Of a stretch of 51,368 bases of DNA, positions 1 through 51,368 are shown piece by piece. A model generated the notes under the pieces. That model worked only from the letters and a program-made list of their open reading frames with translations, had not been told where the DNA came from and did not search any database. The stretch lies in IMG/VR virus record IMGVR_UViG_3300045988_135063. One strand, 5' to 3'. The stretch is from a virus. The position numbers and the translations under genes were made by a program. Position 1 is the stretch's first letter. Each line of letters starts with the position of its first letter.

Positions 1-36
1 GTATCTTGAACATCTTGAGTATCTTGAACATCTTGA
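1..36 (-). repeat. Tandem 9-bp (18-bp alternating) coding repeat gtatcttga/acatcttga at window start; same array as at window end
   Basis: Four 9-mers at 1-36. Nt 1-27 are identical to 51342-51368. On the minus strand they encode (QDT/QDV)n. Confidence 0.9.
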
Positions 37-857
37 GTATTAGCAACGAATTGAGCATCTAACTCTGTTTGAGCCTTTAATTCTTTTAATTGTTCCTGTA
101 ATCTTCTTGCCTCAATTCTTTTTCTTTGTTCTTCAAGTTCTTGCTCATAGAATGCTTTTTCTCTCTCTATATCAACGATTCCACCTTTATTATGGTAAAT
201 CCCTAATACATACTCCACAGAGTTTTTACCCTGTAAATATGCAACATCTAAGCAAGGTCTAAGTATAAACTCATCCATCCCTTTTAAAGTGTCCATTGCC
301 TTAGTATCATTTTTATCACAATTTAAAACTATGCCTTTTTTCTCACACATATCTAGCTTTTTCATAATTCCACACTCAGAGAAATTATACTCAAAGTAAT
401 CGGGAGCAGTTACAGGTACTGCCTCAGTTGTAGTAACCTCTGGAGTTGTCTGATCTTCTTGAGTTGTCTTAGTTTTTGGAGCTTTAGTCCCTTCTGGTGG
501 AGTATCATTTGACGGATTAGGTTTAACCTCAACCTCTAACTCCTCAGTTGTAGTAACTGAATTGTATTTGTAGATAGATAAAGTGTTTTTACTTGTACCC
601 CTTTTAACCATTGTTATTATATCTAAATCTATAAACTCTTTTAAAAGTCTAGTAGCCTTATTTCTTGTTATATTTAGTGCCTCTGATACCTCATGTATTG
701 AAGTATTGAAATATCCTTTAGGTAGATCTCCCTTTAATCTAGTGAAATTCTCCTTTTGCATTAACATATGATTTAGTTGTATTTTTTCTATGTCCTTTAT
801 TACATCAAATTTTAATGTTGTATTATCTAATTGATAAAATCCTTGTGTCTTTTCCAT
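1..857 (-). CDS. Replication organiser/initiator-like protein, N-terminal part (wHTH plus DnaD/DnaB_2-like domain); continues at window end
   Basis: ATG at 855-857 with a GGAGG RBS. The minus frame stays open to nt 1 and remains in frame across the 1/51368 junction. HTH-like segment (TSIHEVSEALNITRNKATRLLKEF). SVEYVLGIYHNKGGIVDIE resembles the DnaD C-terminal motif. Confidence 0.55.
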   Translation of the reverse strand, partial: MEKTQGFYQLDNTTLKFDVIKDIEKIQLNHMLMQKENFTRLKGDLPKGYFNTSIHEVSEALNITRNKATRLLKEFIDLDIITMVKRGTSKNTLSIYKYNSVTTTEELEVEVKPNPSNDTPPEGTKAPKTKTTQEDQTTPEVTTTEAVPVTAPDYFEYNFSECGIMKKLDMCEKKGIVLNCDKNDTKAMDTLKGMDEFILRPCLDVAYLQGKNSVEYVLGIYHNKGGIVDIEREKAFYEQELEEQRKRIEARRLQEQLKELKAQTELDAQFVANTQDVQDTQDVQD

Positions 858-887
858 TTTTCAATCCTCCTAAGTTTTATGTATTTT

Positions 888-916
888 ATTATATATTAAT
901 CATTTCTAAATGTAAA
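888..916 (-). promoter_or_regulatory. Sigma-A-type promoter TTTACA-17-TATAAT for the initiator-like gene
   Basis: Minus strand: -35 TTTACA (911-916), 17-nt spacer, -10 TATAAT (888-893), about 30 nt upstream of the ATG. Confidence 0.6.
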
Positions 917-946
917 GTGGTTTTTAATAACTTTTAATTTACTATG

Positions 947-979
947 TTCAAATATCATTCAAATATCATTCAAATTTCG
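947..979. repeat. Three tandem 11-bp iterons TTCAAATATCA (third degenerate)
   Basis: Copies at 947-957, 958-968 and 969-979. A further copy ttcaaatatc lies at 1121-1130. They sit about 30 nt upstream of the -35. Confidence 0.8.
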
Positions 980-1241
980 ATTATTTTCGGAGCTTTGCTC
1001 CCCTTAATTAAAACCACTACAATATTTTTACGAATTTTTTTTAAAAATTCTTTTTATTACTTTCTAAATAGTATGCTAAAATCCGTACTATAAACTGTAT
1101 CATAAATACCCTTAAAAGCATTCAAATATCTAAATTTAACTGTGTTATTTACTGTTTTAAACACATATCTAGTAACTATACTATTTGATATAGTGTAAAT
1201 TTACTGTATTTTTAGGTATTTGATAGCATATTTCTACAAAA

Positions 1242-1270
1242 ATAGTAATTTATGTTTGCACACTTGTCAA
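1242..1270 (-). promoter_or_regulatory. Possible second sigma-A-type promoter TTGACA-17-TACTAT in the 626-bp intergenic region
   Basis: Minus strand: TTGACA (1265-1270), 17-nt spacer, TACTAT (1242-1247). No ORF of 60 aa or more lies downstream before the 888-916 promoter. Confidence 0.35.
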
Positions 1271-1320
1271 GTAAAAATTTTAATATAGTAATAATTTACA
1301 TAAATTATTAAAAAAAGACA

Positions 1321-1356
1321 AAAAAAAGAATGGAGCAGTTTACCAGACTGCTCCAT
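1321..1356 (-). terminator. Intrinsic terminator after the endolysin gene
   Basis: 9-bp stem atggagcag/ctgctccat (1330-1338/1348-1356). A plus-strand A-run gives a U-run on the minus transcript. Confidence 0.75.
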
Positions 1357-1483
1357 CCAAGACACATTTTATTTTACCAATTCAAATAATACATAAAGGA
1401 GATGGGAAAGGATAATCCCAAATCTTTATAATAATATTTGTTAACGTTATTATAACATATTTATCACTATAAATCAACAAGAT

Positions 1484-5543: not shown

Positions 5544-5602
5544 TCTTAAAACTCCCTTCTATTTTATATTTACTTATACAACTATAGAAACATTTTTAAA
5601 CG

Positions 5603-5631
5603 AAAAAAAGAGAGGGGTATAAAGCCCCCTC
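5603..5631 (-). terminator. Terminator-like hairpin
   Basis: gagggg/cccctc stem after an A-run, between the Tal-like gene and the fibre gene. Confidence 0.5.
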
Positions 5632-5635
5632 CCAA

Positions 5636-8600
5636 TTATTTAATGATAAAATCAAAGCCAGAGTTATTATCCGTTGTAGTCCTTGATACCATTTCTATTT
5701 TATTATTTATAGTGATTTTATTTTTAACTGTAAGATCACCATTTACCTCTACCTCAACATCGGCATCAGCTCTGGTGAATTTATAATGTGGGCTACCCTC
5801 TTTAATTGCCCCAGTACTGTGGAATACCATAGAGCCACTATCATATTTAATCGAGTGTGCATACTGACCATATGAACCACTATACCCCATTTTTAGAACA
5901 TCATCCGAATTATTAGGGAATATTAAATATTTTTTATCTGTAGTTATGTTTAATGTTGAATCAGTCATATTTACAGACCTATTAGCTTTATCAAACTCTA
6001 CAACCTTATTATTAGTATTACCGATAATTAAAGTAGTATCAATAAATGATGCATCCTCTTGTAGTTTAATAACCTCTTTAGCATTATTATTGCTACTTAA
6101 TGTGATTGAGCCATTAGTTGAGTTAGTGTCCTCAATTCTAATATTACCGATATCTATAGAACCTGTAACAGTCCCATTAAATTCCCCTTTTGTGGCTATT
6201 ACAGTCCCATCCTGTAAAACTCTAAAAGGAGCAGCATCTCTATTTTCATAGTTAGCCCCTCCCCAGAACCTAACAGATTTATCACCAGTTCCATCATCAG
6301 TTAACCCACCATTAGGTAGTATAACAGAACCCCTAACAACTGCATTATTTAAATAAGCATCACCAGTAGGAGTTAATTTGTAACCACTTTTACCCTCAAC
6401 ATAATTAAATGATGTTAAAGTACCTTTAATATCCGTATCACCAGTTTCAGATATAGCAAATGTGATATTTTTCTGAGCATCCTCTATAACTAAACCTTTA
6501 GCATTAATCTTGTCGGCAGATATAGATTTAGTGTAAATATTTCCACCATTTATAAAAGTCTTATCGGCAGTACTATCATGCACAAAGTTTTTCTTTAACT
6601 CTGAATCAAAAGCATCAAAAGAGATTAACCCTGTTATATCAACCCTTTCCCCAGAGATTTGACCTGTTGTAATTTGAGAGGCATCTAAAGACACAGTTTT
6701 TAAAGCTCCTACAAATCCAGTATTAGCAAAAATATCATCTATCACAAGTTTATTACCTGTAATACTCTCATCGGCTATTTTAGGATTAGTGATAGCCCCG
6801 TCAGTTATTCCCTCAGAATAAACACCGTTCTCGTCATAAAGTACGGTATTTCCATCTGCTCCTCGTACTCTTAAACCATACAGAGAGCCATCATTATTAA
6901 CATCACCAATAGCAACCCTTTCTACTGGAGTAGATTGAGCATCAAATACCTGTAATCTATTATTAGTCATTCTAAGTTTACCATTTACACCAGAGATAGT
7001 AATTTTACCAGTATCAATAGTTCCAGTAGTTATTTTCTCAGCATTAATAGATTTAATTTTAGCACTATCTATAGTGGCATCTTGTATTTTAGCATTAGTT
7101 ATAGAACCATTAGCAACCTTTAAACTAGAAATACTACCATCAACAATATGGGCAGTCCCTATTGCTCCGTTACTAATCATAGCAGAGGTAATAAACCCAT
7201 CTTTAACATTTAATCTATCAGACGATATAGAGCCACTTGTAATATTATTAGCCGATAAATTAATAACATTTATTTTACTAGCATCTATTGATCCTGTAGT
7301 TATACTATTCGCAGATAAATTTTTAACTGTAACTTTACTAGCATCTAATGAGCCTGTAGTGATGCTACTAGCAGATAAATTAGTAACCTTAATTTTACTA
7401 GCATCAATAGTACCAGTAGTAATGTTAGTAGCATTTAGGTTAATAACATTAATTAGCCTAGCATCTAACGTACCAGTAGCAATACTGTCTGCTGAGAGAT
7501 TAGTTACATTAACATTACTAGCATCAATAGTACCCGTAGTGATATTATCAGCATTTAAATTTGATACATCTATAACACTAGCATCTATTGATCCTGTGGT
7601 AATATTATTAGCATTTAGATTTGTTACACCGATAACACTAGCATTGATTGAACCACTTGTAATATTACTAGCATTAATATTTGATACATTTATTTTACTA
7701 GCATCAATAGTACCAGTAGTGATACTATTAGCAGATAGATTTTTTACGTCAATCTTAGTGGCATCTAATGTACCAGTAGTAACATTACTAGCATTGATAT
7801 TTGTTACATTGATTTTTTGAGCATCTATTATACCACTTGTAATATTATTAGCATTTAAATTCGATACATCAATTATACTAGCATTAATCGAACCACTTGT
7901 AATATTATCAGCATTGACATTGGTTACATTTATTTTACTAGCATCTAATGTTCCTGTAGTAATATTACTAGCATTCAGATTTTTTACATTGACTAACTTA
8001 GCATCTATTGAGCCTGTAGTAATACTATTAGCATTTAGGTTAGTAACAGTAATTAAATTGGCATCTAGTGTACCTGTAGTTATCTTATCAGCAGATAAAC
8101 TAGATATATGAGTACTAGATATAGCCTCCTGTCCTATCTTGTCAGAAGTAACTGCCCCATCTTGTATATTCTCCGATGTTACAGGGAATTTACTATTAAT
8201 TGATCCATTTACAATGTTCTCAATCTCACCTTGCAGTTGGTTAGCTAAATCCCTCACATCACTTGTTATATTAGAACGAACCTCTTTAAAGTTTGCTAGT
8301 TTACAAGTGGTTTCGCCTGTCTTACTTTTTTCTAAAACAGATACTCTAGCACTTAATAACATATTAGGTACAAAATCTGTATCTATAACAAAGACCTCAT
8401 CTCCTAATCTTACATCTGAGCCTAATAATTCCACATCCATTTCATAAGTAATTTTTGGCTCTGACCTTCTTTTTAATTCTTTTCTAGTTAGATATAATAA
8501 TTCGTCTGGGCTATCAGTTTCAGCTTTATATACACCTGTAATATGAGAGCCTTTATTATTCCACCTATCGTAAGCATCTTGGTCTATTATAAAATCTTGG

Positions 8601-9319: not shown

Positions 9320-9376
9320 TGAAAAACCTCCTAAAATTTATATCTACAAAGGTATCTATTAAAAGGTTTTTAAACT

Positions 9377-9404
9377 AAAAAAGAGAGAGGCAAAAGCCCC
9401 TCTC
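9377..9404 (-). terminator. Terminator-like hairpin
   Basis: gagagg/cctctc stem after an A-run, between Dit and Tal. Confidence 0.5.
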
Positions 9405-9405
9405 C

Positions 9406-11208
9406 TTATAGCCATTTTTCAGTTATGGATGCAGATACATCTATTGCATCATCGTCAGATACCACCATGAATTGAGATGTCCCTTTTCCAACATTAAAGA
9501 ATTTTGAGCCTATATCTAACTCAGACATAAAAGGATTATTATTTAACTCAATCTCATTATTCTCACAATCTATAATTAATTGATCCCCTTGCTTAAATAT
9601 AGCTCTATTTGTTGTTGTATTAGATACTGGATTAACTCGACTAACTTTAATATTAGACACAGTCATTGTATCAACTGGAATAACATCTCCATACTGTCCG
9701 AACCAAATAACCACATGATTTAAATTCCCAGTAGGAAATGCCTTATCCGATAAACTATTAGAAACTAATCTCTGTGTAGTCTTTCCATCCACTTGTTTAT
9801 TGACTTCACAGGTCCATAAATAACCACTACCCTTTTTAACTCTCTTTAATTTGAAAGTCCCTTTAAATTCGTTCCAGTTTCCGAATTTACCACTATCAAC
9901 TTTAGTAATAGTTTTATTACCATCTTCATCTTTTTTGCTTTCAGTCTTTGGTGAGGGTGCATCTACCCCATCACTTAAAACCAGTTTATTCCCAATATAA
10001 ACCTCTGGCTGAGTATATTCAAAATACTGCTCACTATCTCTGATAACAAATTTACCTAATTTCTGTGAGTTGTTATCAAATAGGTATACCTCCAGTCTAC
10101 CCATCCTATTCTCGGCTGATGGGGTTTCCTCGTCTGTTGTAGCTCTAGCTGATTTACTAGAATTAAGTTTTAGATAAGTCATATCACAATAACCAGTTTT
10201 ACTGTTATAGGTAACCTTGCCCCAACCTTTAGATATATCAGTTACAGTAACAATCTTACCCTTTGGAATACTTGTAAGTTTCTTATAAGATGAACCTCTC
10301 CCAGATCGAACCCTTAAAGATGGTTTAGCAGTTACAGTATATTTAGAACCGTTAGATGGTTTAGTATTCGAGTTAGACCCTTGACCTTTTACAGAGCCTT
10401 TACTATCATGCTCAACTCTAACCTCAATTTCAAACTCCTCAAGACTAGTACCAATATTCCTCCTTAATGCTCCACCATGCCATTTCTCACCATCACCATA
10501 ATTAGCACAACAAATACCATAACCTCCACCATTTATAGTACAGTTACCCGTAACCTCTCTACCACTATCTAAAACATTTCCAGATGCAGTAAAGTTTGTA
10601 GTAGTTTCACATGGCTCATTCAATACTACTGTTGATGGCTTTGTAGAGGTTTTATCAACATCAACCCTATTACCAATTAGAATAGCATCACTTGTATAAT
10701 TAACCACTTGAACAAAGTGAGCATCTTTAGAAAACTCAATATTTATTAAAGGTTGTGTTTTAGCACTACCATTATTTTCTACAGTAACAACCCCATCACT
10801 ATCTGCCTCAAAGATTTTATGACCATCTGAATAAGCTAAAGGGTTATGACATAAAAATCTTATAGTACCTAATCCAGTACTCATTAATTGATCTAACTCT
10901 GTAGCACCATCTAAAACTGCATAATAATATTTATCTGGCTCATCTCCGATAACTAATTTCGTAGGGGTTTCTGTATCAAGCATATCCCCAAGTGTTCTCA
11001 CAAACTCAAAGTATTGTGAACTTGTTTTACAAACTATTGCAAAATCCACTTCAATGGTTTTACTTTTGTATTTATGTCCTGTATATACTGAGCCATTCAT
11101 AGAATTTATATCTATAGAGTAATTTTCTCTCTCAGCTAACAATGGTCTTTTAACTTCTCTAATTTTAATAAAGTCTGTTAACTCTTTTCCTCCAAAATTT
11201 AAAAACAT
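9406..11208 (-). CDS. Distal tail protein (Dit, Sipho_tail family) with inserted SH3b-like and extra domains
   Basis: 600 aa. The N-terminus MFLNFGGKELTDFIKIREVKRP is typical of Sipho_tail. Position is after the TMP. Internal LRVRSGRGSSYKKLTSIPKGKIV. Confidence 0.8.
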   Translation of the reverse strand: MFLNFGGKELTDFIKIREVKRPLLAERENYSIDINSMNGSVYTGHKYKSKTIEVDFAIVCKTSSQYFEFVRTLGDMLDTETPTKLVIGDEPDKYYYAVLDGATELDQLMSTGLGTIRFLCHNPLAYSDGHKIFEADSDGVVTVENNGSAKTQPLINIEFSKDAHFVQVVNYTSDAILIGNRVDVDKTSTKPSTVVLNEPCETTTNFTASGNVLDSGREVTGNCTINGGGYGICCANYGDGEKWHGGALRRNIGTSLEEFEIEVRVEHDSKGSVKGQGSNSNTKPSNGSKYTVTAKPSLRVRSGRGSSYKKLTSIPKGKIVTVTDISKGWGKVTYNSKTGYCDMTYLKLNSSKSARATTDEETPSAENRMGRLEVYLFDNNSQKLGKFVIRDSEQYFEYTQPEVYIGNKLVLSDGVDAPSPKTESKKDEDGNKTITKVDSGKFGNWNEFKGTFKLKRVKKGSGYLWTCEVNKQVDGKTTQRLVSNSLSDKAFPTGNLNHVVIWFGQYGDVIPVDTMTVSNIKVSRVNPVSNTTTNRAIFKQGDQLIIDCENNEIELNNNPFMSELDIGSKFFNVGKGTSQFMVVSDDDAIDVSASITEKWL

Positions 11209-13647: not shown

Positions 13648-14264
13648 CTATTTAAAACTATCAAGTAATTCTTCCTGTAGTTTTTTGTGTTCATCTTTAT
13701 CTACGGATTTTATTCCTTTTTGATTATCTTCACCCTCATCTGGATTGAATAAATCGGTTGGCTTTATTTTTTTCTTTAACGTACCCATACAGTTAATTAT
13801 GATAGAAGTTTGCCAAGCTAATTTTTGCATATCAACCTTAAACTCCTCATTCCTAGCTATGGTATAAGCCTCCACCATTTCATACAGTTCTACAGGTTCT
13901 AAACTATATAATTCTTTAGGTCTTAGATTAAACACCCCATAACCCCAATAACAAATATCATTCCAAGAACCTAAGCCTTTGGCTTTTGCAAACCCCCAAG
14001 TGCCTCTGTTAGTTTTGTAGTAACCATGTTTATATTTCCCATGTCTACCAAATCACCAACCTCCTCGAAAGTTATCTCTGGGTCATCTTTTAATAATCCG
14101 ACATGGAGTAATGCTTGAACCATCTCTAAACTAAAATCTTTGTCTAGTTTGTCAAGTTTTACACCATAATCTTTTTCTAATATTCTTAGAGAGTTTAGAG
14201 TATATTTTAAAAATCTCTCTCTCCCATCTTCTAAAACAATTAATACACCTTTTCTCATTTCCAT
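13648..14264 (-). CDS. Tail assembly chaperone G-T fusion made by -1 programmed frameshift
   Basis: The -1 frame is open from the slippery site at 13989-13995 through the 13648-13935 ORF. Canonical position between the major tail protein and the TMP. Confidence 0.6.
13971..14264 (-). CDS. Tail assembly chaperone (G-like)
   Basis: 97 aa ORF with an AGGAGG-type RBS. Lies immediately downstream of the major tail protein. Confidence 0.7.
   Translation of the reverse strand: MEMRKGVLIVLEDGRERFLKYTLNSLRILEKDYGVKLDKLDKDFSLEMVQALLHVGLLKDDPEITFEEVGDLVDMGNINMVTTKLTEALGGLQKPKA
13989..13995 (-). other. -1 ribosomal frameshift slippery heptamer G GGT TTG
   Basis: Minus strand reads ctt ggg ggt ttg caa aag cca aag gct tag. 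The X XXY YYZ pattern lies 5 codons before the G stop. Confidence 0.6.
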
Positions 14265-14347
14265 AAATTCCTCCTATTTATTAATAGCTACAAAAAAAAG
14301 AGTAGCCATCTTATACTCTATAAGATAACTACTCAATTATTTTTAAA

Positions 14348-35194: not shown

Positions 35195-35224
35195 AATGAG
35201 TAAAGAGATTTACAAAATGTTTAC
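35195..35224 (-). promoter_or_regulatory. Phage-type promoter-like motif (site a): GTAAAC-N17-ACTCATT
   Basis: Minus strand: GTAAAC attttgtaaatctcttt ACTCATT. Confidence 0.45.
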
Positions 35225-37426: not shown

Positions 37427-37723
37427 CTATAATAAACCTCTAGCCCTAAGTATACTGACTGCTCTGCTCCTAATCCTTATATGCTTATAAGGTAAATTAA
37501 AGCCAGATGCATGACTAAACTTAGTGGTAAAGGGTTTGTGCCATTTTACTTTTTTACAAATCTCTGGGTACTTCTTTTGTAACTCCAGTAATTCGTTACA
37601 CCATCTATCAAAAGTTGCATCATCAATTATATTCATGTCATACTCATAATAAATACAAGAATGTACTAAAATCTGATGCCTCCTCCTATTTATCAACTCT
37701 CGTATCCTCTCCGAGTTCTCCAT
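37427..37723 (-). CDS. Small protein resembling the N-terminal Ia domain of NAD-dependent DNA ligase
   Basis: 98 aa. IYYEYDMNIIDDATFDRWCNELLELQKKYPE compares with the LigA pattern YYxxDxPxISDxEYDxLxxEL..LE...P. Confidence 0.35.
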   Translation of the reverse strand: MENSERIRELINRRRHQILVHSCIYYEYDMNIIDDATFDRWCNELLELQKKYPEICKKVKWHKPFTTKFSHASGFNLPYKHIRIRSRAVSILRARGLL

Positions 37724-37751: not shown

Positions 37752-37781
37752 ATTAAGTAATAAAAAAGGAAAGATGTTTAT
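37752..37781 (-). promoter_or_regulatory. Phage-type promoter-like motif (site k): ATAAAC-N17-ACTTAAT
   Basis: Minus strand: ATAAAC atctttccttttttatt ACTTAAT. Overlaps a ggaaag/ctttcc hairpin. Confidence 0.4.
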
Positions 37782-37803: not shown

Positions 37804-38457
37804 TTATTTTTCTTTTCCCATTTCCTCTAATTTATCAGTAACTATTTGTACTAACTTTTGAGCATCCTCTGAATTATTTACAACATCCATATTATCCATA
37901 TCTATTACTATAATTGGTGATGCTTTATAACAGTTGTAAATCCACTCATCATAACCTTTCCACAATTCAAAGTAATATTGTTTAAGGGCATCATCTAACT
38001 CGTATCCCCTCCCCCTCTTTTTGATTCTCTCAAGCACTTTCTCAAAAGAGCCTTTTAGATAAACCATTAATTCTGGAGCTTTCTTTGGCATTCCATCAAT
38101 CTCTTTCACCATTTCCTCCAGTATTTCATCGTAAAGATCACTCTCTAACTGAGATATTCTCCCTAATCTACAATTCACATCTTTAAAATATTTATCTTCC
38201 CATAATGATCTATCTAAAACATTATTCGGATGAGATTGAGCCTCCTTAATGCTCATAAACCTACTACTTAAAAATTCTAACTGTAAAAGAAATGGATATC
38301 TTTTTGCCTGTATCTCTTCCTCTGAGGCAGTATAAAATTTCTCCAATACTCTATTATTCTCTACCTTTTCATAAAACACTTGAGAACCAAGAGCCTCACC
38401 TAAAATCTTGGCACAACTAGATTTACCTAGTCCTATCATTCCACCTATAACAATCAT
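37804..38457 (-). CDS. Deoxynucleoside kinase (dAK/dGK/dCK family)
   Basis: 217 aa. GMIGLGKSS P-loop, DRSLWED, RIKKRGRGYE. Confidence 0.85.
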   Translation of the reverse strand: MIVIGGMIGLGKSSCAKILGEALGSQVFYEKVENNRVLEKFYTASEEEIQAKRYPFLLQLEFLSSRFMSIKEAQSHPNNVLDRSLWEDKYFKDVNCRLGRISQLESDLYDEILEEMVKEIDGMPKKAPELMVYLKGSFEKVLERIKKRGRGYELDDALKQYYFELWKGYDEWIYNCYKASPIIVIDMDNMDVVNNSEDAQKLVQIVTDKLEEMGKEK

Positions 38458-38460
38458 TTA

Positions 38461-38658
38461 TTAAAACTCCTTTTTATTTAACATATCAAATATTACGTTC
38501 CTTAGTGTATTTAGAGCCTTTTCTTTTCGTTCTAAAGATTTCTGTAACTCTAAAATCTCCTTATCCTTTTCAGAGATAACTATCTTTTGATCCTGTATTA
38601 TGGTATGTAAGCCCTTTATCTCATTTTCTATAGATAATAAGGCTAATGATTTAACCAT
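38461..38658 (-). CDS. Small coiled-coil protein (65 aa)
   Basis: Start overlaps the tdk stop (TAATG). Confidence 0.5.
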   Translation of the reverse strand: MVKSLALLSIENEIKGLHTIIQDQKIVISEKDKEILELQKSLERKEKALNTLRNVIFDMLNKKEF

Positions 38659-39233
38659 TACACCATACCCCCTGTATTTAACTCAGAGTAACATTTCCTA
38701 CATAAAGGTGTGTATTTATCATATGAGCCTATGTCTATAGTTTCCTTATTAGCACCCTCTATATTTTTTCTAGCTGATATATGAGCATCGTTCCCACACT
38801 CATTACAAACTGCTTTAAACTTATTTATCACATCAGCATGACACATTAAAGAGCCTGTTACCATGAATGCAGCATTGTCAAAAGTTAAATCTAGCCCCGA
38901 GCAGTAAATCACTTTACCCTTATCTAGTAATCTTAAAATATCGTCTATAATTGTAAAATTAAAGAATTGTATCTCATCAATTAGTATAACATCAGCCTCT
39001 AGTACTTCATCACAATAAATACTATCATTTATATCTACAACCATTGACTGAGTATAATCAGATGCCTCCCCGTCATGGCTCACTATTTTAGTATTAGAGT
39101 ACCTAGCATCTATAGTAGGCTTTATGTAAAGTACTTTATCTTTAGCTATTGTATGCCTCTTACCTTGCCTTAATAGTTCTGTAGTCTTTCCAGAAAACAT
39201 ACTCCCTACATTAACAGTTAATTTCCTTTTCAT
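38658..39233 (-). CDS. tdk: Thymidine kinase
   Basis: ATG at 39231-39233. GSMFSGKTTELLR, LIDEIQFF and C-terminal CxxC...CxxC. Confidence 0.9.
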   Translation of the reverse strand: MKRKLTVNVGSMFSGKTTELLRQGKRHTIAKDKVLYIKPTIDARYSNTKIVSHDGEASDYTQSMVVDINDSIYCDEVLEADVILIDEIQFFNFTIIDDILRLLDKGKVIYCSGLDLTFDNAAFMVTGSLMCHADVINKFKAVCNECGNDAHISARKNIEGANKETIDIGSYDKYTPLCRKCYSELNTGGMV

Positions 39234-39234
39234 C

Positions 39235-39495
39235 TTACACAATCTCCTCACTTAAATATTTTTTAGATAGTGATATTATTAAATCATCTTTTCTACAAAT
39301 TAATCTAACTGTAGGATCTTCATCTATAGCCGATAATAAATAGCCATAATCTTTAAGGATTTTTCCATTAAAGCCTACGATATAATATTTATCACCGTAA
39401 GAGCTGAATATTCCTAAATCTCCATCACAATCTACTAAATCACCTAAAAATATACAACTAACATTTCTTTCTATGTGATTCTTTATTGTTGCCAT
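39235..39495 (-). CDS. Hypothetical protein (~86 aa)
   Basis: ATG at 39493-39495, 8 nt after GGAGG. Confidence 0.5.
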   Translation of the reverse strand: MATIKNHIERNVSCIFLGDLVDCDGDLGIFSSYGDKYYIVGFNGKILKDYGYLLSAIDEDPTVRLICRKDDLIISLSKKYLSEEIV

Positions 39496-39522: not shown

Positions 39523-39552
39523 GATAAGTCAGTATATTTTCAAAATGTTTAC
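39523..39552 (-). promoter_or_regulatory. Phage-type promoter-like motif (site b): GTAAAC-N17-ACTTATC
   Basis: Minus strand: GTAAAC attttgaaaatatactg ACTTATC. Confidence 0.45.
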
Positions 39553-41732: not shown

Positions 41733-41762
41733 ATAAAGTCAATAAAAAAAGAAGATGTTTAT
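41733..41762 (-). promoter_or_regulatory. Phage-type promoter-like motif (site j): ATAAAC-N17-ACTTTAT
   Basis: Minus strand: ATAAAC atcttctttttttattg ACTTTAT. Confidence 0.45.
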
Positions 41763-41792: not shown

Positions 41793-42386
41793 CTATTGCT
41801 CTAATAACACCCTCAACTTTGTAAAATCTGGGTTTTCTCCTTTTTTCCAAACCAAATGGCAATACTCAATACTATCAGTTTTTTTATCTGAGGTAAAACT
41901 TATACGTTTATTATGAACAAAACAATATTTTGGCATAAAGTTTTTCCACAAATCCTCTCTTACCTTACCCCCAAAGTAATTTAATCTAAGCAACATTATT
42001 ACATAACCACCCTCTTTAACATCGTCAATGGCTTTTAATATTATGTCCTTAGAAATATTAAATGGTGGATTAGTTATAATAACATCATATTTACCTTTTA
42101 AATCTTTCTCAAGATAATTACCCTTCTCAGATGCTCGAGAATCATCTCTTATATCCAAAGTATTTACCACCAAATCATTATTGAATTGATATAATGCTTT
42201 TGGGTAAGACATTTCATTATCTGCATCCCCACCTGCACATGGGTCTAAAACTTTAACCCCACTCATTTTAAATATATGCTCATGCTTTTCAAACTCATAT
42301 AAAAACTGTAATATCTTTTCAACAGGTGTTACATAATAATCATTTTTATGCAAATCCCTACTATTACTCCTCAATGTACTACTCAT
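41793..42386 (-). CDS. N6-adenine DNA methyltransferase (NPPF)
   Basis: ATG at 42384-42386 after GGAGG. VLDPCAGGD (motif I) then IITNPPF (motif IV). Confidence 0.8.
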   Translation of the reverse strand: MSSTLRSNSRDLHKNDYYVTPVEKILQFLYEFEKHEHIFKMSGVKVLDPCAGGDADNEMSYPKALYQFNNDLVVNTLDIRDDSRASEKGNYLEKDLKGKYDVIITNPPFNISKDIILKAIDDVKEGGYVIMLLRLNYFGGKVREDLWKNFMPKYCFVHNKRISFTSDKKTDSIEYCHLVWKKGENPDFTKLRVLLEQ

Positions 42387-42403
42387 TTTAACCTCCAATT
42401 ATA

Positions 42404-42454: not shown

Positions 42455-43114
42455 CTAGAAAGGTATTTCCTTATCTGCTTTATTTTCTTCCTCTGGTAAT
42501 TCCATTCCGAAATCAGCAACGGGGAAGTTAGCCTCATGTAAGACTTTAACCATTAAATCCTCTGTTCTTGGGTTTAATACAGTACTGAAAAATTCATCAG
42601 TAACAACGATACCCTCTAAAGCATCAAATTGCTCTTGGTCATAGCCTTTCATTTTTATTATTGGATTTAATAGATAGGCAGTTTCAGTTTTTTCCCCTTC
42701 TTTTTTAAGGTTAAAGGCTAACTCGTCTATCTCGTCCTTATATTCTTCTATTGCAGATATTAATTTCTTTGCTTGTCCTTTTGATACATCTAATATCATT
42801 GTTGTACCAGTTTCCATATCTCCGAAAGCAAATACATATCTTTTCTTAGGTCTTAATACCTCAAATTCCTCTATACCAGATTTAGATGCAGTACATAAAG
42901 GACACTCTTTACCTAATACCTCTATACAAGGTTGAGTATATATCTTATGATTAAACGATGAGTGTGCTTTATACTCTACATAATCATTTAGTCCTAGTAT
43001 TCTTACTTTTCTACTTTGCCCAGATTTTAGGCTTATTCTCACTTTTGATAAATCAACATTTTGCCTGTTTATGTTTTCTTTTGCTTGTTCTCCTCTAGCA
43101 GTAAATATTGCCAT
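42455..43114 (-). CDS. ssb: ssDNA-binding protein, gp32-like zinc motif and acidic IPF tail
   Basis: ATG at 43112-43114 after GGAGG. PCIEVLGKECPLC. C-terminal EEENKADKEIPF. Confidence 0.55.
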   Translation of the reverse strand: MAIFTARGEQAKENINRQNVDLSKVRISLKSGQSRKVRILGLNDYVEYKAHSSFNHKIYTQPCIEVLGKECPLCTASKSGIEEFEVLRPKKRYVFAFGDMETGTTMILDVSKGQAKKLISAIEEYKDEIDELAFNLKKEGEKTETAYLLNPIIKMKGYDQEQFDALEGIVVTDEFFSTVLNPRTEDLMVKVLHEANFPVADFGMELPEEENKADKEIPF

Positions 43115-43241
43115 AAGTAGTACCTCCATTTTCTTCTTTTTTTTCTTCTTGGTTTTCTTCTTTTCGTCAATAGATTTTATACACAAAATTAAAATAAAAT
43201 AAAAATCACTTAAAAATATTTTGATAAGATTAGCTTTAATG

Positions 43242-43270
43242 AATATAAAACTATAGTATTACCTTTTCAA
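43242..43270 (-). promoter_or_regulatory. Sigma-A-type promoter TTGAAA-17-TATATT
   Basis: Minus strand: TTGAAA (43265-43270), TATATT (43242-43247). Confidence 0.45.
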
Positions 43271-43306: not shown

Positions 43307-43336
43307 ATAAAGTAATATCTATTTTATTTTGTTTAC
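43307..43336 (-). promoter_or_regulatory. Phage-type promoter-like motif (site l): GTAAAC-N17-ACTTTAT
   Basis: Minus strand: GTAAAC aaaataaaatagatatt ACTTTAT. Confidence 0.45.
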
Positions 43337-43383: not shown

Positions 43384-44028
43384 CTAAAATAAATGAGCAT
43401 AACCATTAGCTAACATATATTTATATAATTTATCTTTTAGTTTGAATATCTTTACTCTCTCAGTAGATGTATATTTTTCTATCCCTAACTCTTTTTTAAT
43501 CCTCTCAGTAGCTTTATGACCACCCAGTTCGTAAGCATATAATATTTTTGCTTTTGGATGTATCTTTACAAACTCCTCCAGAGCATCATATATAGTTTTT
43601 TCTTTAAACAGTTTAGATTTGTCTGCATATTCCCCGAAATATTCATCTTTTAATTCTTTACCTGTTAAAAGTGCCTTATGCTTTTGATTAGTTGCTGATT
43701 TAAATAGGTTGATAAATGCTTTTTTAACTCTATAATAATATAATTTCATAAATGCATTAGGTGTAACATTAGGATCAAAATCATTTACTAATCTCACTAA
43801 TACCTCAGATAGTGCCACTGAGTAGTAATCCAACTCACAAGCTCTAATTTCTTCATTATTCTTTAAGTTTCTAACCTCATTATCACAGAACTTAGTTATT
43901 TTAGGATAAATCATTTTATATAGTTCTGCATAAGTATCTTGCCACTCAAAACTATTATTCTCTAAAGTTTTTAATTGTACTGCTAAATATTCTATTTTTT
44001 CATCATAAGTCATTTTTAATTGTGTCAT
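43384..44028 (-). CDS. Sigma-70-family-like protein (regions 2 and 4)
   Basis: ATG at 44026-44028 after GGGGAG. DFDPNVTPNAFMKLYYYRVKKAFINLF resembles region 2. C-terminal HTH-like ILYAYELGGHKATERIKKELGI. Confidence 0.5.
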   Translation of the reverse strand: MTQLKMTYDEKIEYLAVQLKTLENNSFEWQDTYAELYKMIYPKITKFCDNEVRNLKNNEEIRACELDYYSVALSEVLVRLVNDFDPNVTPNAFMKLYYYRVKKAFINLFKSATNQKHKALLTGKELKDEYFGEYADKSKLFKEKTIYDALEEFVKIHPKAKILYAYELGGHKATERIKKELGIEKYTSTERVKIFKLKDKLYKYMLANGYAHLF

Positions 44029-44062
44029 TGTTTTTCTCCCCACATCTTCTGTTTTTCTGTTA

Positions 44063-44092
44063 TTTAAGTAAGGAAAAATTTAAAATGTTTAC
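44063..44092 (-). promoter_or_regulatory. Phage-type promoter-like motif (site f): GTAAAC-N17-ACTTAAA
   Basis: Minus strand: GTAAAC attttaaatttttcctt ACTTAAA. About 35 nt upstream of the sigma-like ATG. Confidence 0.45.
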
Positions 44093-44308
44093 TCTTTTTT
44101 AAAAAAATTATTAATTATAGTAATCAATAATTTAATAGTAAAAAATATAGATGTGCCTACTTTGATAATTACAGATCATCGAAATCAATAATTTTAAGCA
44201 CAAAAAAAAGAGTTCACAAATAACCCCCTCCAATTTTACGTTGAAGTGGTCATTGTAAACCCTTTTTATAATTCTATAATAATATAATATACTTAAATTT
44301 TCCCCACA

Positions 44309-47677: not shown

Positions 47678-47707
47678 ATACAGTAAGAACAATTTTCTAT
47701 TGTTTAC
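47678..47707 (-). promoter_or_regulatory. Phage-type promoter-like motif (site h): GTAAAC-N17-ACTGTAT
   Basis: Minus strand: GTAAAC aatagaaaattgttctt ACTGTAT. Confidence 0.5.
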
Positions 47708-47730
47708 TTTCGTGTATTAATTTTTTAAAC

Positions 47731-48101: not shown

Positions 48102-49031
48102 CTACATCTTAGCTACTAATCTAAGTATTTTACTATTTACAAATTGAGCATCCTTTACTTGCTCTGCATGAGTGTAGTGTTTTGTAAAGTATTTGAAAGT
48201 AGAATAAACACCACCACCGAAAATTGATATTTTTTCAACCTGTCCTACTTTAAATTTAGCCTCCTCTATAGAAGATACTACACCATCCACAAACTCCTGT
48301 ACCATTAAGTATATAGCAGATATATCAACAGGTACTTGGTTTATAGGGATTACTGTTTTTTCCTTGCAGATTATTTTTTCTATATCTCCAGTAGTAAATG
48401 AACCCCCGTAATTATAGTTTAAATACTCTGCTATATTTAGATACATATTTGTTATACTTGCATCTAATGTTGTGTAATTTACAGGGGACATATCTTCCCA
48501 CTCTACAACGTTGATAGTTCCACCACCTATATCTATAGTTAATTGATGGCTCATATCTTCATTAAGAACAGGTAAAGCACCCTCTATAAAGAATTTTAAA
48601 TCTACTATCTCTATTGTATATGTATTATATTTTCCAGTATTCTCATCTTTTATAGCAAGTTCTTGAACTCCCCAACTTTCTATTATAGAACGAACTTCCT
48701 CGACTTTTCTCTCAAAGTTCATAATTGGTAAGCCTAAACAAATTTTAGCTCTTACATTTCTTTTTCTTCCAGATTTTAAAGCTATTGCAGTAAGCACACA
48801 TAATTTATATGCATCTGTTGAATATTTAAACTCACCCATTACTGCCTTTCCATCACCTACAACATAATCAACTCCATTATAATTGACTTGGTGTACTTCT
48901 ATTCTTTTATCTAACTCTAATTTCTTTCCTATTTTAACCTTAGTTGCAAATTTCATATTTGAGAAATTAGCATATGCATTTCCTATATCAAAACCTTCTG
49001 TTAAATTTGGTATTACTAATGTATTATTCAT
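48102..49031 (-). CDS. parM: Actin-like segregation ATPase (ParM/Alp family)
   Basis: 309 aa. Phosphate-1 FDIGNAYAN, phosphate-2 IDIGGGTINV, adenosine motif IFGGGVYS. Confidence 0.75.
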   Translation of the reverse strand: MNNTLVIPNLTEGFDIGNAYANFSNMKFATKVKIGKKLELDKRIEVHQVNYNGVDYVVGDGKAVMGEFKYSTDAYKLCVLTAIALKSGRKRNVRAKICLGLPIMNFERKVEEVRSIIESWGVQELAIKDENTGKYNTYTIEIVDLKFFIEGALPVLNEDMSHQLTIDIGGGTINVVEWEDMSPVNYTTLDASITNMYLNIAEYLNYNYGGSFTTGDIEKIICKEKTVIPINQVPVDISAIYLMVQEFVDGVVSSIEEAKFKVGQVEKISIFGGGVYSTFKYFTKHYTHAEQVKDAQFVNSKILRLVAKM

Positions 49032-49242: not shown

Positions 49243-49271
49243 ATTATATATCATATCAAAAAATAATGCAA
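49243..49271 (-). promoter_or_regulatory. Sigma-A-type promoter TTGCAT-17-TATAAT for parMR
   Basis: Minus strand: TTGCAT (49266-49271), TATAAT (49243-49248). Abuts iteron cluster 1. Confidence 0.6.
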
Positions 49272-49274: not shown

Positions 49275-49330
49275 TTTTTTATATATTTTTTATATAAATT
49301 TATATATTTTTATATATACTTTATATATAA
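49275..49330. repeat. parC-like iteron cluster 1: five TTATATA-type repeats at 10-11 bp period
   Basis: tatat cores start at 49280, 49291, 49301, 49311 and 49322. The 38-nt segment 49280-49317 is identical to 49397-49434. Confidence 0.8.
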
Positions 49331-49380
49331 TTTAGGTATACCAACAGTTTGAGCCTCATATCTTTTTCTAATTTTCTTTA

Positions 49381-49476
49381 TTTTTTATATACAATATATA
49401 TATTTTTTATATAAATTTATATATTTTTATATATCTCTTATATACAGTATATATATCATATAATCTTTATATAAAG
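49381..49476. repeat. parC-like iteron cluster 2: about eight TTATATA-type repeats at about 10 bp period
   Basis: tatat cores start at 49386, 49395, 49408, 49418, 49428, 49439, 49448 and 49468. Confidence 0.8.
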
Positions 49477-49526: not shown

Positions 49527-49748
49527 ATGAAATGTACTGCTTGTGGTAGTGAAATGATGTGTGTATCAGTTTGTGAAGGAGTTTTTGCTGAGGATGTTCT
49601 AGGTGATGATGTCAGATGTACTGGGGAACTGTGTTATTTAAATGATAATAAATGTAGTAAGTGTGATGCTTGTGCTTATGATACAATAGTAAACATTAAA
49701 GAATATCGTTGCCCAGAATGTGATTCGGTGATACAACATACTTATTAA
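49527..49748 (+). CDS. Cys-rich zinc-ribbon protein (73 aa)
   Basis: AAGGGGGG RBS. CTAC, CSKCDAC and CPEC pairs. Plus strand, divergent from parMR. Confidence 0.65.
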   Translation: MKCTACGSEMMCVSVCEGVFAEDVLGDDVRCTGELCYLNDNKCSKCDACAYDTIVNIKEYRCPECDSVIQHTY

Positions 49749-49774: not shown

Positions 49775-49811
49775 AAAAAAGGAGAGGTTCATCTGCCTCT
49801 CCTTATTTTTT
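49775..49811. terminator. Bidirectional terminator
   Basis: 9-bp stem aaggagagg/cctctcctt with an A-run on the left and a T-run on the right. Confidence 0.7.
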
Positions 49812-49823
49812 CCTATTTCAATT

Positions 49824-50747
49824 TTACAGTTCCATAAAATCAGAATAATCTGCATCTATATAATCAGCAGTTTGATCTATCAACTGCTTACTTTTCTTAT
49901 CTGCTTTTTGCTGCTCCAGTAAAACTCGTACTACCTCGTTGCATAACCATGAGCAAAGCATACCTATAGTTGGGTATGGGTATTTACTATTCCCCCATCT
50001 TGATGGGTATTCCTTTATCGTTAAATGTATAATCTCTACAATCTCATCAATACTAAAATTCTTTATAAGTTTGTTTTTAATTAAACCTAAATCCCTTTTA
50101 TAGTTTATTACATATGACTTGCCATATGCCTCTTTATATTGTTCTGCAAAATAATGTGCAAGGTCTTTACTATTCTTAATAACTTTCTTAGATGGTTCTA
50201 TAACCTCCTCAGAGCCATTTTCCGTAGTTTCTACAACCTTATCAGTAATTTCATCAACAGGACTATCACAACCTGTTACAAGGGCATCCTCTCGTACCTC
50301 AAACCTATCCTCATCTATAGCATCTATATCAACTGTATTTATATCTCTATGGTCCTCTATATCAATATCTTTAGGTGAAAGATCGAATATAGTATATACA
50401 GAGTTTTTACGTTGACCTGTTCCCCTTAAAACTCTATCTAAGATAGGCATTCCATTTATCTGTATCTCTAATAAGTTAGATACTGCTTTGTTTACAGTAG
50501 TTAAAGATAAACCTGTTATCTCTGCAATCTGTCTTTGTGTGGGATAGCACTCTCCTCCAGTATTCATAAATGAGGCTATTCCTAATAATACCGTAAGTTC
50601 CGAACCCCTCACATGATGGAGTAAACCATTCCTAATAGCAGTAACATCTATTTTTAAATAGGTATCATATCGAGTCTGCTTATTTGTGGCATCATGCTCA
50701 GTATTAAACACGATAGATAAAAATTTACCAGTTTCTATATTTTTCAT
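49824..50747 (-). CDS. wHTH DNA-binding protein, replication-initiator-like
   Basis: ATG at 50745-50747 after AAGGAGG. ECYPTQRQIAEITGLSLTTVNKAVSNLLE. First gene of the replication cluster. Confidence 0.5.
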   Translation of the reverse strand: MKNIETGKFLSIVFNTEHDATNKQTRYDTYLKIDVTAIRNGLLHHVRGSELTVLLGIASFMNTGGECYPTQRQIAEITGLSLTTVNKAVSNLLEIQINGMPILDRVLRGTGQRKNSVYTIFDLSPKDIDIEDHRDINTVDIDAIDEDRFEVREDALVTGCDSPVDEITDKVVETTENGSEEVIEPSKKVIKNSKDLAHYFAEQYKEAYGKSYVINYKRDLGLIKNKLIKNFSIDEIVEIIHLTIKEYPSRWGNSKYPYPTIGMLCSWLCNEVVRVLLEQQKADKKSKQLIDQTADYIDADYSDFMEL

Positions 50748-50779
50748 TTTATCAAGTCCTCCTTTAATCATTACAATAA

Positions 50780-50809
50780 CTAAAGTAATTACGATGATAA
50801 AATGTTTAC
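50780..50809 (-). promoter_or_regulatory. Phage-type promoter-like motif (site e): GTAAAC-N17-ACTTTAG
   Basis: Minus strand: GTAAAC attttatcatcgtaatt ACTTTAG. About 33 nt upstream of the ATG. Confidence 0.5.
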
Positions 50810-50815
50810 GAATTA

Positions 50816-50836
50816 TTGTTATAATTTTTGTAACAA
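50816..50836. promoter_or_regulatory. Palindromic site TTGTTATAA-ttt-TTGTAACAA
   Basis: Identical to 23291-23311. Lies 6 nt upstream of the GTAAAC element. Confidence 0.6.
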
Positions 50837-50886
50837 AAGAACATACTAAATATAAATATAGATATATAGATATAGTAGGTACTTAC

Positions 50887-50903
50887 GTTACAATATTTGT
50901 AAC
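50887..50903. promoter_or_regulatory. Palindromic site GTTACAA-tat-TTGTAAC
   Basis: Identical to 23363-23379. 69 bp centre to centre from 50816-50836. Confidence 0.6.
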
Positions 50904-51037
50904 AATAAATAAAATATGCTTTTCACACTATAAAAGCCTTTTTAAGCTATATTTTGTATTTAGGTATATAATTACCTTATTTCTAAGTTAAAATTGCTTA
51001 GGAGGGCATTTAAGCCCTCTGAGTGCTATCTAAACAC

Positions 51038-51368
51038 CTACCCCCTAGATACCACTCTATCCTCAGCATATGCTTGATCTATTACAGTAGTATCTACTTG
51101 ATAGTATTTTGCATAATGTTTAGCTAGGTTAACATTAGTATCTAAAAGGTGTCCTTTACCCTCTATTATGTCTATGTAAGTAGTGTAACCAATACAATCC
51201 CTAATAAAATTAAAATTTGGTGATGTATTTGGGTATACAGGTAAACCAGTCTTTGTATCTATTGGATAGCTTTGATTTTGGCTTTGATCTTGACTTTCTA
51301 CAGTAGCAACTTCATCAACTTGGACCCCTTGAACATCTTGAGTATCTTGAACATCTTGAGTATCTTGA
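51038..51368 (-). CDS. C-terminal part of the initiator/organiser-like CDS that starts at nt 857
   Basis: The minus frame is open from 51368 to a TAG at 51038-51040 and is in frame with 1-857 across the junction. Confidence 0.55.
   Translation of the reverse strand, partial: QDTQDVQDTQDVQGVQVDEVATVESQDQSQNQSYPIDTKTGLPVYPNTSPNFNFIRDCIGYTTYIDIIEGKGHLLDTNVNLAKHYAKYYQVDTTVIDQAYAEDRVVSRG
51324..51368 (-). repeat. Tandem 9-bp coding repeat at window end
   Basis: accccttga, acatcttga, gtatcttga, acatcttga, gtatcttga. Continues the array at 1-36. Confidence 0.9.

Follow-up and report, generated by a model that had tools for sequence, protein, structure and literature searches.

To our knowledge, the silencing of lytic genes alongside the expression of maintenance genes has remained largely unstudied in phage-plasmids other than P1 and N15. 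Among phage-encoded transcription factors, Xpf and SPO1 gp28/gp34 are full-length sigma-like proteins. The LtrA family of the Ltr superfamily (late transcriptional regulators of Gram-positive phages), which also includes RinA, ArpU and LtrC, comprises basic proteins of small size whose C-terminal domain resembles sigma region 4; genes of this superfamily directly precede terS, and their products activate a single late promoter via repeats close by (Quiles-Puchalt et al. 2013, PMC3753634). Phage-plasmids are described as "very common in other clostridia" in a study of C. perfringens plasmids (PMC10210947). Here we analyze the DNA of a presumably temperate phage of siphovirus type (IMG/VR record IMGVR_UViG_3300045988_135063; the whole stretch of 51,368 bases is called the window), in which the genes are divided between two classes of promoters. 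Promoters of the host sigma-A type (class 1) precede plasmid-maintenance genes, and a private motif (class 2) heads the replication, nucleotide and late operons. We consider it probable, if by no great measure, that this is a plasmid-maintained temperate phage with two promoter codes, of which the private one would be read via a sigma-4-like phage factor together with a partner protein. The two promoter classes gain a mechanism in this way, since the sigma-4-like protein and its partner probably read the private motif.

The private motif RTAAAC-N17-ACT was found 15 times in the window, as compared to 2.01 ± 1.45 matches in shuffled sequences (0 of 100 shuffles reached 15). Thirteen of the 15 matches were on the minus (coding) strand, and all 13 of these were intergenic. 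Twelve of them are distinct sites, and the thirteenth (29790-29815) is an upstream copy that overlaps one of these. The 12 sites are the heads of 12 operons with replication, recombination, nucleotide-salvage, virion/lysis and small-operon genes (Table 1); two of these operons carry genes of no assigned function or genes resembling those for single-stranded DNA-binding proteins. The sites lie approximately 25-35 nt ahead of the ribosome-binding site and are frequently located right behind an intrinsic terminator. Alignment revealed three blocks, with the extended consensus gTAAACAtTTT-N10-TTACT-ttAtataTG-AA: gTAAACA is followed after 14 nt by TTACT, and then by a conserved TATG-AA start region. 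The best sigma-A scores at class 2 sites were 6.5-8.5, compared to 9.5-11.5 for class 1 units. A sigma-A promoter hidden within the motif, with its -10 at TATAnn, was ruled out, as the corresponding -35 position reads ACATTT (0/6). Judged by these scores, class 2 sites are without usable sigma-A hexamers and should not be read by host sigma-A.

The preliminary description of this DNA had assigned the motif to the structural operons. One copy does head the late region (23246-23271), but it is the only one in 22 kb, where no further copies were found at 0-1 mismatch, and the claim was thus overstated. Matches with two mismatches were near background (80 vs. 60). Within the late region (1484-23179) this single recognisable promoter is accompanied by at least eight strong terminators between genes, each a hairpin with a T-run (e.g. 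22538-22556, 17384-17405, 14300-14334, 9380-9407, and 5610-5633). Because one promoter faces at least eight terminators over 22 kb, either leaky termination or an antitermination mechanism would be expected. The word GTTTAAAAA was present in 14 copies vs. 2.7 expected, 12 of the 14 on the coding strand and frequently right after terminators (5593-5601, 9367-9375, 14340-14348, 22521-22529, 33938-33946, 47722-47730, and others); two copies are located 14 nt upstream of class 2 promoters. A role of GTTTAAAAA as a third, late promoter class was not upheld, as about half of the copies are within genes and no convincing fixed partner element was seen.

All six host-type promoters listed in the preliminary description were recovered at their positions (Table 1). 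They had been termed near-consensus, which is apt for the first two to four; the remaining sites go down to 8/12 matches. Two of the six sites match at 11/12, and two have only 3/6 matches in the -35 hexamer. The list was also not exhaustive, and we identified seven equally good sigma-A-like sites beyond the first six (1449-1477, 1242-1270, 24211-24239, 26457-26486, 34398-34427, 43242-43270, and 44114-44142), two of which adjoin class 2 promoters in the replication module. The split of genes between the promoter classes is clear, but not perfectly clean. Window-wide, sigma-A-like pairs occurred at or below the frequency expected by chance (observed vs. shuffles: 84 vs. 90.8, 85 vs. 111.5, and 48 vs. 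63). Among intergenic coding-strand sites with at least 10/12 matches, a modest enrichment was observed: 10 sites vs. 4.6 ± 2.0 in composition-matched shuffles, 5 of 500 of which reached 10 (p ~0.01), with intergenic DNA making up 13% of the window. The class 1 signal is therefore one of placement and of conservation in relatives, the latter being weightier, and not of the hexamer match alone.

Conservation was evident at several of these promoters. At the position orthologous to 888-916, relatives (denoted here by L numbers) have TTTACA-17-TATAAT (L028) or TTTACT-17-TATACT with an extended TG (L027), and the resolvase promoter corresponds to TTGTAT-17-TATAAT in L011 and TTGACA-17-TAATAT in L015. 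The initiator and parM promoters remain of the sigma-A type in three relatives. The parM promoter is always behind TATATA-type iterons, with orthologues in L028, L026/L027, and the plasmid pCPC216_2. In the window, the parMR promoter and the promoter of the unit encoding a membrane protein and a helix-turn-helix (HTH) protein share a 45-nt cassette that includes the post -10 element AATATTGTCAGAGGGACA. The same post -10 element was found behind sigma-A promoters in a C. difficile relative (L022, around 13680-13700), and it may be a common operator or leader element. The post -10 segments 49243-49225 and 26162-26140 both carry AATATTGTCA(A)GAGGGACA.

Further features were observed close to class 1 sites. 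The sigma-A-like promoter 24211-24239 (TTTAAA-17-TATAAT), whose -10 is kept in L011, is followed about 60 nt on by a terminator (24132-24153), with no open reading frame (ORF) in between; this unit (24132-24239), which closely precedes the promoter of the resolvase, may specify a small RNA. The non-coding stretch 26100-26632 is ~99% identical in relatives whose proteins are ~90% identical. It holds three repeats CAGATTTTAATACA spaced by 100 bp, the sigma-A-like site 26457-26486, and an ORF for a strongly hydrophobic peptide of 38 aa (26317-26433), and may serve in maintenance, for instance in the manner of a type I toxin-antitoxin system. Directly upstream of the initiator promoter, 947-975 contains 11-bp repeats TTCAAATATCA (x2.6), possibly an operator or iterons.

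Comparisons between lineages connect the private motif to the sigma-4-like protein. Contigs encoding a sigma-4-like protein 85-91% identical to that of the window are syntenic with it and carry the private motif at orthologous positions with drifted spacers. The GTAAAC type is kept in this way, with divergent spacers, in L011-L016 and L028. Four further lineages keep the geometry of the motif with other letters, in which element 1 occupies positions 1-7 and is followed by a -10-like element around 23-28 and by TATG-AA around 32-38. The variants include TACAACA..CAACT (L026/L033), TGACAGA..cTGTATC (a 55-kb C. difficile contig), and GTCACT..TTTAATA (C. perfringens plasmid pCPC216_2). The window's motif sequence was not found in the IMG/VR relatives L002 and L003, at 70% terminase identity. 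The recognition helix of the sigma-4-like protein is identical in the three genomes that have GTAAACA, and it differs in each lineage with another element 1 (YTTQATFNNVKR, ATPQATFNNIKR, YTSHNSVRMCINR, and ISQQAVQDYISK). No counter-example to this co-variation was encountered in five lineages. The phBC6A51-type terS-like HTH protein (25091-25477) was ruled out as the specificity factor, as its recognition helix is the same across lineages with different motifs.

The co-variation bears directly on whether an alternative sigma factor of the host, e.g. of the extracytoplasmic function (ECF) type, recognizes the private promoters, in which case no phage specificity factor would be needed. GTAAAC-N16-TACT does resemble the Bacillus ECF geometry TGAAAC-N16-CGTA, and ECF -35 elements typically contain AAC. 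Profile scans of 67 ORFs of the window (Pfam, PHROGs or NCBIfam) yielded neither a full sigma factor (with region 2) nor a phage RNA polymerase, and the lack of a complete sigma gene is in line with a host factor. However, phages with 57-71% identical terminases use different sequences in the same geometry, two variants occur in apparently one host group, and the motif differences follow the recognition helix of the phage protein. Host sigma specificities are far more conserved than this, and we regard a host alternative sigma as very improbable.

The class assignment is also retained in relatives. Their maintenance-type genes (parM with iterons, resolvase, and several small cassettes) are behind sigma-A promoters; the DnaD/O-like initiator, parM, and the resolvase keep host-type promoters, and the replication, nucleotide, and late operons keep private ones. 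The claim of two promoter classes in the preliminary description was thus borne out, for class 2 by 15 matches vs. 2.0 expected and for class 1 by placement and by class assignments kept in relatives. As far as the sequences of the relatives tell, the two-class design is a property of the whole lineage.

The candidate reader of element 1 is a protein of 109 aa. It matched the profiles Sigma70_r4 (6.8e-6), UPF0122 (1.3e-7), TIGR02937 (3e-6), and phrog_3512 "sigma factor" (1.7e-10), as well as YlxM/UPF0122 proteins in the PDB and, weakly, the NCBIfam model "positive control sigma-like factor" (E 0.0016). In an AlphaFold2 model (predicted local distance difference test score 81), ~60 residues superpose on region 4 of sigma-E, SigL, and SigR with deviations of 1.4-2.0 Å, and region 4, the -35-binding HTH of sigma-70 factors, is thus represented. 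The gene of the 123-aa partner overlaps the end of the sigma-4-like gene, and the partner carries an almost invariant C-terminal motif, KDVDKVSKTEYPILSxHQIKRR. In relatives the two genes are always adjacent and overlapping, and near a divergent HTH gene. The pair's own operon is behind the private promoter in every lineage, which implies positive feedback. A divergent HTH gene occupies the position of the XRE gene in all relatives. In the window, the second GTAAAC copy (29790-29815) overlaps the -35 of the divergent XRE promoter, and three GTAAA(C) copies cluster within the XRE / sigma-4 control region. From this arrangement we infer the layout of a bistable switch.

These observations can be joined into the following proposed mechanism. 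Host sigma-A-type promoters would serve parMR with its centromere, the DnaD/O-like initiator, the resolvase, the XRE gene, and two accessory cassettes, and this host-type set would, going by its gene content, be the lysogenic set. Host RNA polymerase would read the private promoters only together with a phage factor, presumably composed of the 109-aa sigma-region-4-like protein (28883-29212) and the 123-aa protein (28519-28890) as its obligate partner. The private promoter of the pair's operon would add positive feedback, and XRE would keep this operon off in the plasmid state. Upon release of XRE, the entire lytic programme would fire at once.

A plasmid state is suggested by the maintenance genes. 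The ParM protein is 36-37% identical to ParM/StbA proteins of C. perfringens, C. botulinum, C. tetani, and C. difficile plasmids (57 clostridial plasmid matches), and it matched PDB entry 3js6, deposited as "Uncharacterized ParM protein" (E 0.007). An actin-like ATPase, as in type II ParMRC systems, is therefore present, and so are short direct repeats at the par promoter, in two blocks directly upstream of it. Comparable iterons were found in L028, L026, and pCPC216_2. The initiator-like protein encoded across the junction of the window ends matched phrog_13390 (1e-22), a DnaD-like loader (1e-8), and O-like replication initiation proteins (1e-5), and the repeats inside its gene may mark the origin. 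Partition as well as replication-initiation genes, which characterize phage-plasmids, are thus both encoded. The small serine recombinase has the catalytic domain, the C-terminal HTH (residues 172-206), and the size of ~200 aa of a serine resolvase; it matched phrog_125 (7e-35), a PHROGs family named "DNA invertase". The terS-like HTH gene and the resolvase gene are separated by 1 kb of non-coding DNA with four copies of TTTACTGACATA, and this array is a candidate res or pac site, either one equally.

In agreement with the preliminary description, the 67 scanned ORFs included no integrase, whether of the tyrosine or of the large serine recombinase type, and the only recombinase was of the resolvase/invertase serine type; this is absence of evidence for integration and does not prove that integration is absent. 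The exact sigma-4-like protein was present in 174 sample blocks. The longest contig exceeded 200 kb in 0 of the 174 and was 50-200 kb in 12, and the inspected contigs with this protein were approximately of genome length. The best match of the terminase among plasmids was pCPC216_2, a 55-kb plasmid of the cultured isolate C. perfringens C216 (66% terminase identity). It is syntenic throughout, with annotated ParM/StbA, a recombinase, and a "sigma factor-like HTH" protein with an overlapping neighbour. Two Bacillus species, Bacillus altitudinis and B. licheniformis, also harbour 60-kb plasmids that encode the terminase together with the partner. Stable extrachromosomal maintenance is thus observed for relatives (pCPC216_2 and the 60-kb Bacillus plasmids), and for the present phage the plasmid-prophage reading is well supported, not proven.

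Several points weigh against a plasmid-maintained phage with a private promoter code. For both classes, promoter function is predicted from sequence. Taken one by one, the sigma-A hexamer pairs do not outscore many chance matches, some of which are intragenic, and other sigma-A-like sites occur within lytic modules. The preliminary description had placed initiator, partition, resolution, and repressor functions on host-type promoters; this applies to the DnaD/O-like initiator, parMR, the resolvase, and XRE, but the second initiator-like gene (49824-50771, HTH_36 / weak RepL) carries a private promoter, and two of the six host-type units encode proteins without a known maintenance role, one of them holding the terS-like HTH. 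The parR candidate has no family or PDB match. Metagenome contigs of genome length are expected from a purely lytic phage too. In the 109-aa protein only 47 residues precede the region-4-like part; sigma region 2 is lacking, and the protein is therefore not classifiable as a sigma factor. The Foldseek E-values of the sigma-4 overlay are weak (0.2-0.9), and KorA-type global repressors overlay the model equally well (~2 Å). The partner as a sigma region 2 was not supported: its N-terminal three-helix bundle was confidently predicted by AlphaFold2, and Foldseek yielded nothing below E 5 against the PDB. A "split sigma" is accordingly no more than an idea, and a full sigma function would be conjecture. 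In two lineages the motif contains a partial dyad (GTAAA-N16-TTTAC), visible in the window and clearer in L015/L028, which fits a dimeric operator. Finally, the operon of the factor would itself require the factor, and the proposed mechanism offers no initial trigger.

The dyad and the KorA overlay lead to a different account, according to which the private motif is an operator. A dimeric global repressor (the sigma-4/KorA-like protein with its partner, or XRE) would bind GTAAA-N16-TTTAC at each lytic operon, in the manner of P1 C1 or RK2 KorA, and the promoters would be weak or atypical sigma-A promoters. The C. difficile relative shows ACAG/CTGT symmetry, GTAAA(C) copies are clustered in the control region, and a regulator gene behind its own site is reminiscent of the autoregulated korA. 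On the other hand, none of the 12 sites accommodates a sigma-A -35, and where sigma-A prefers a T in the -10, the candidate hexamer (TACTnT) invariably has a C. Two of the four other lineages have the same three-element geometry without dyad symmetry. The upstream and -10-like elements both change between lineages, which fits promoter recognition and not one operator. We find the operator account improbable.

Alternatively, the two classes could reflect a temporal lytic cascade, in which host-type promoters are early and private ones middle or late via a phage factor. They would then have no bearing on lysogeny, and a stable plasmid prophage would not be required. Several sigma-A units consist of small genes without known function with their own promoter and terminator, like an early or host-takeover cluster, and between four and six cassettes of this kind are present at the corresponding place in the C. 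difficile and C. perfringens relatives. The circular contigs of genome length would equally fit replicating lytic DNA. In Bacillus phage SPO1, sigma-A serves the early genes and phage sigmas the later ones (PMC13401047). A purely lytic cycle, however, offers no obvious use for ParM and its iteron centromere, for a resolvase, or for a divergent XRE gene, and relatives organized in this way reside as plasmids in cultured isolates. The factor genes are, moreover, behind a private promoter and not an early one. A cascade is also compatible with a plasmid-maintained phage, because a temperate phage has both programmes; as a replacement for that reading we hold it to be unlikely.

The sigma-4-like/partner pair is found in Clostridium phages FA67/FA70, Bacillus phage PK2, the Paenibacillus Halcyone group (where the partner's neighbour is annotated as "sigma factor"), Bacillus plasmids, and a chromosomal tail-gene cluster of Paraclostridium. 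In the chromosomes of Paraclostridium ghonii and P. dentum (L020 9687-20354; L029; L030) a divergent XRE gene and the pair are directly upstream of siphovirus tail genes, and the L020 cluster adjoins host two-component, ABC-transporter, and MurJ genes. Its appearance is that of a defective prophage or of a cluster resembling an F-type tailocin, with the same control module. A more far-reaching hypothesis, which we put forward tentatively and consider rather doubtful, is that the pair is an undescribed two-subunit promoter-specificity factor and the sole maintenance/lytic master switch across a widespread lineage of phages and phage-plasmids of Clostridia, Bacillus, and Paenibacillus and in the Paraclostridium tail clusters. 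Gated by the adjacent XRE repressor, the factor would redirect host RNA polymerase to a three-element promoter private to each lineage. One subunit would read the variable upstream element of this promoter, and the invariant basic motif of the other would engage the polymerase or the TATG-AA start region.

In this phage the division between maintenance and lysis appears to be written in the DNA, with a dozen operons on a private promoter and the maintenance genes on ordinary ones. That the private code changes by lineage along with one small phage protein leads to the hypothesis of a one-factor lysis-lysogeny switch. Orthogonal pairs of promoter and factor are potential genetic tools in Clostridia, and the same module hints at the control of related chromosomal tail-gene clusters of the hosts. 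Should the hypothesis fail, an ordinary new phage-plasmid remains.

Table 1. Promoters, maintenance genes, regulators, and other mapped features of the window.
Feature	Position	Strand	Details
Class 1 promoter, DnaD/O-like initiator	888-916	-	TTTACA-17-TATAAT, 11/12
Class 1 promoter, 79-aa membrane protein / phBC6A51-type (terS-like) HTH unit	26162-26190	-	TTGACT-17-TATAAT, 11/12
Class 1 promoter, XRE gene	29811-29839	+	TTTACA-17-TATATT, 10/12
Class 1 promoter, two-gene operon (27141-27665, 26632-27141)	27713-27741	-	TTTACA-17-TAAAAT with TG, 10/12
Class 1 promoter, parMR	49243-49271	-	TTGCAT-17-TATAAT, 9/12, 3/6 in -35
Class 1 promoter, resolvase	24072-24100	-	TTGCAT-17-TAAAAT with TG, 8/12
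Class 2 promoter	50784-50809	-	Ahead of HTH_36 replication-initiator-like gene 49824-50771; kept in L028
Class 2 promoter	47682-47707	-	DnaC-like / DnaB / primase operon (47675 down to 44309)
Class 2 promoter	44067-44092	-	Ahead of gene 43384-44043, 219-aa product, no assigned function
Class 2 promoter	43311-43336	-	Ahead of 42455-43186 and methyltransferase gene 41793-42398
Class 2 promoter	41737-41762	-	PD-(D/E)XK nuclease / DNA methylase / RuvC operon
Class 2 promoter	39527-39552	-	Thymidine kinase / deoxynucleoside kinase operon
Class 2 promoter	37756-37781	-	Nlig-Ia / NupC nucleoside transporter operon
Class 2 promoter	35199-35224	-	Ahead of 34452-35162
Class 2 promoter	33898-33923	-	Family A DNA polymerase operon; both elements kept, spacers vary in L011, L015
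Class 2 promoter	31117-31142	-	Ahead of 30793-31083 and 30268-30783
Class 2 promoter (switch region)	29773-29815	-	dNMP-kinase / sigma-4-like operon; second GTAAAC copy 17 bp upstream
Class 2 promoter	23246-23271	-	Head of packaging / virion / lysis region (23179 down to 1484)
parM, actin-like segregation ATPase	48102-49031	-	Pfam ALP_N 8.7e-9, MreB-like_C
parR candidate, 106 aa	47778-48098	-	By position only; starts 4 nt past parM end; gene at this position in all relatives
parC-like centromere	49280-49456		Two ~60-nt blocks of TATATA-N5/6 iterons, 11-bp period
Initiator-like ORF, 5' part	1-857	-	Crosses junction, 395 aa in all
Initiator-like ORF, 3' part	51038-51368	-	18-bp tandem repeats, possible internal origin iterons
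Small serine recombinase, resolvase/invertase type	23430-24035	-	201 aa from conserved start (201-207 aa); Pfam Resolvase 6.4e-19
TTTACTGACATA x4	24705-24932		Two tandem, one inverted, one further direct; 0.7-0.9 kb upstream of resolvase gene
Sigma-region-4 / YlxM-like protein, 109 aa	28883-29212	-	Isoelectric point 9.26; candidate reader of class 2 element 1
Partner protein, 123 aa	28519-28890	-	Gene overlaps end of sigma-4-like gene
XRE/Cro-C1-type HTH regulator	29925-30236	+	Candidate lysogeny repressor; Pfam HTH_26 7e-10; one of two plus-strand genes
NupC-type Na+/nucleoside transporter	36220-37398
Deoxynucleoside kinase	37804-38457
Thymidine kinase	38658-39251
dNMP kinase	29202-29738
Nlig-Ia domain protein	37427-37723

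The first 27 bp of the window recur as a direct repeat at its end, and the 395-aa ORF runs in frame over the junction of the two ends. Because of this overlap and the continuous ORF, the window is a circular assembly of an entire genome of about 51.3 kb. The overlap (1-40 / 51328-51368) falls inside the 18-bp tandem repeat of the initiator ORF, so that the number of repeat copies is uncertain, and with it the precise length of the genome. The GC content is ~32%, and the minus strand holds all genes except two. Besides the XRE gene, the only plus-strand gene (49527-49748) is located between the initiator-like gene and parC; its 73-aa protein has two CxxC motifs and no family match in the profile scans.

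The full morphogenesis, packaging, and lysis set of a tailed phage is encoded, including the terminase large subunit, an SPP1-type portal, capsid, tail tube, a tape-measure-sized protein, Dit, a tail endopeptidase, and an amidase endolysin. Replication and recombination genes comprise a DnaC-like loader, a DnaB-type helicase, a primase, a family A DNA polymerase, RuvC, a PD-(D/E)XK nuclease, and two DNA methylases. The nucleoside salvage set (NupC transporter, thymidine kinase, deoxynucleoside kinase, and dNMP kinase) has been retained by relatives, the C. difficile contig L022 among them, and stands out for its membrane importer of nucleosides, an unusual gene product for a phage. The gene of a 1227-aa tail protein with Prophage_tail and Gp58-like domains contains ~14 tandem 60-nt units (7239-8099, 70% matches). 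Scans of the window for tRNA genes and Rfam families gave no match. Megablast of both window halves against 50,697 phage records identified no nucleotide-level relative, and a terminase search of the GTDB species genomes no relative. The host is probably a low-GC member of the Clostridia, in the Peptostreptococcaceae, because homologues of the small regulatory proteins are present in Clostridioides difficile, Paraclostridium, and Romboutsia.

Compared to LtrA, the 109-aa protein is likewise small and basic, with a sigma-region-4-like C-terminal domain, and it is found together with phage operons without host-type promoters. In contrast to the position next to terS and the single promoter of that system, its gene is beside XRE, ~5.6 kb upstream of the late promoter, its putative site is at 12 promoters that include all DNA replication and nucleotide operons, and it has a constant partner protein. 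With PBSX Xre/Xpf of Bacillus subtilis the locus shares an XRE-type repressor gene adjoining that of a sigma-like positive factor, and with SPO1 gp33/gp34 that two small proteins may jointly give specificity; unlike in PBSX and SPO1, sigma region 2 is in neither phage protein. As for RK2/RP4 KorA and P1 C1, one small HTH protein would act at sites in many promoters of a mobile element, and there is similarity to the KorA fold. The operators of KorA and C1 overlap good sigma-70 promoters, whereas here no host-type promoter lies under the sites.

The par locus resembles type II ParMRC (R1, pSK41, and the C. perfringens parMRC families) in its actin-like ParM, small downstream gene, and iteron array at the par promoter. 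It differs in that ParM is only 36-37% identical to the clostridial plasmid proteins, the ParR candidate is without a family match, and both iteron blocks are upstream of the par promoter, which the iterons flank in R1. Phage-plasmids such as P1, N15, SSU5, the groups of Pfeifer et al. 2021, and "phage-like" C. perfringens plasmids such as pCN5383_8 likewise combine a tailed-phage gene set with partition and initiation genes and have no integrase; the difference is that episomal carriage is seen for the relatives of the present phage, which is itself known from sequence and has no nucleotide-level relative in the phage records. Set against these systems, the element is apparently a phage-plasmid with a type II parMRC-like locus, and its private promoter system appears to be one that has so far gone uncharacterised.

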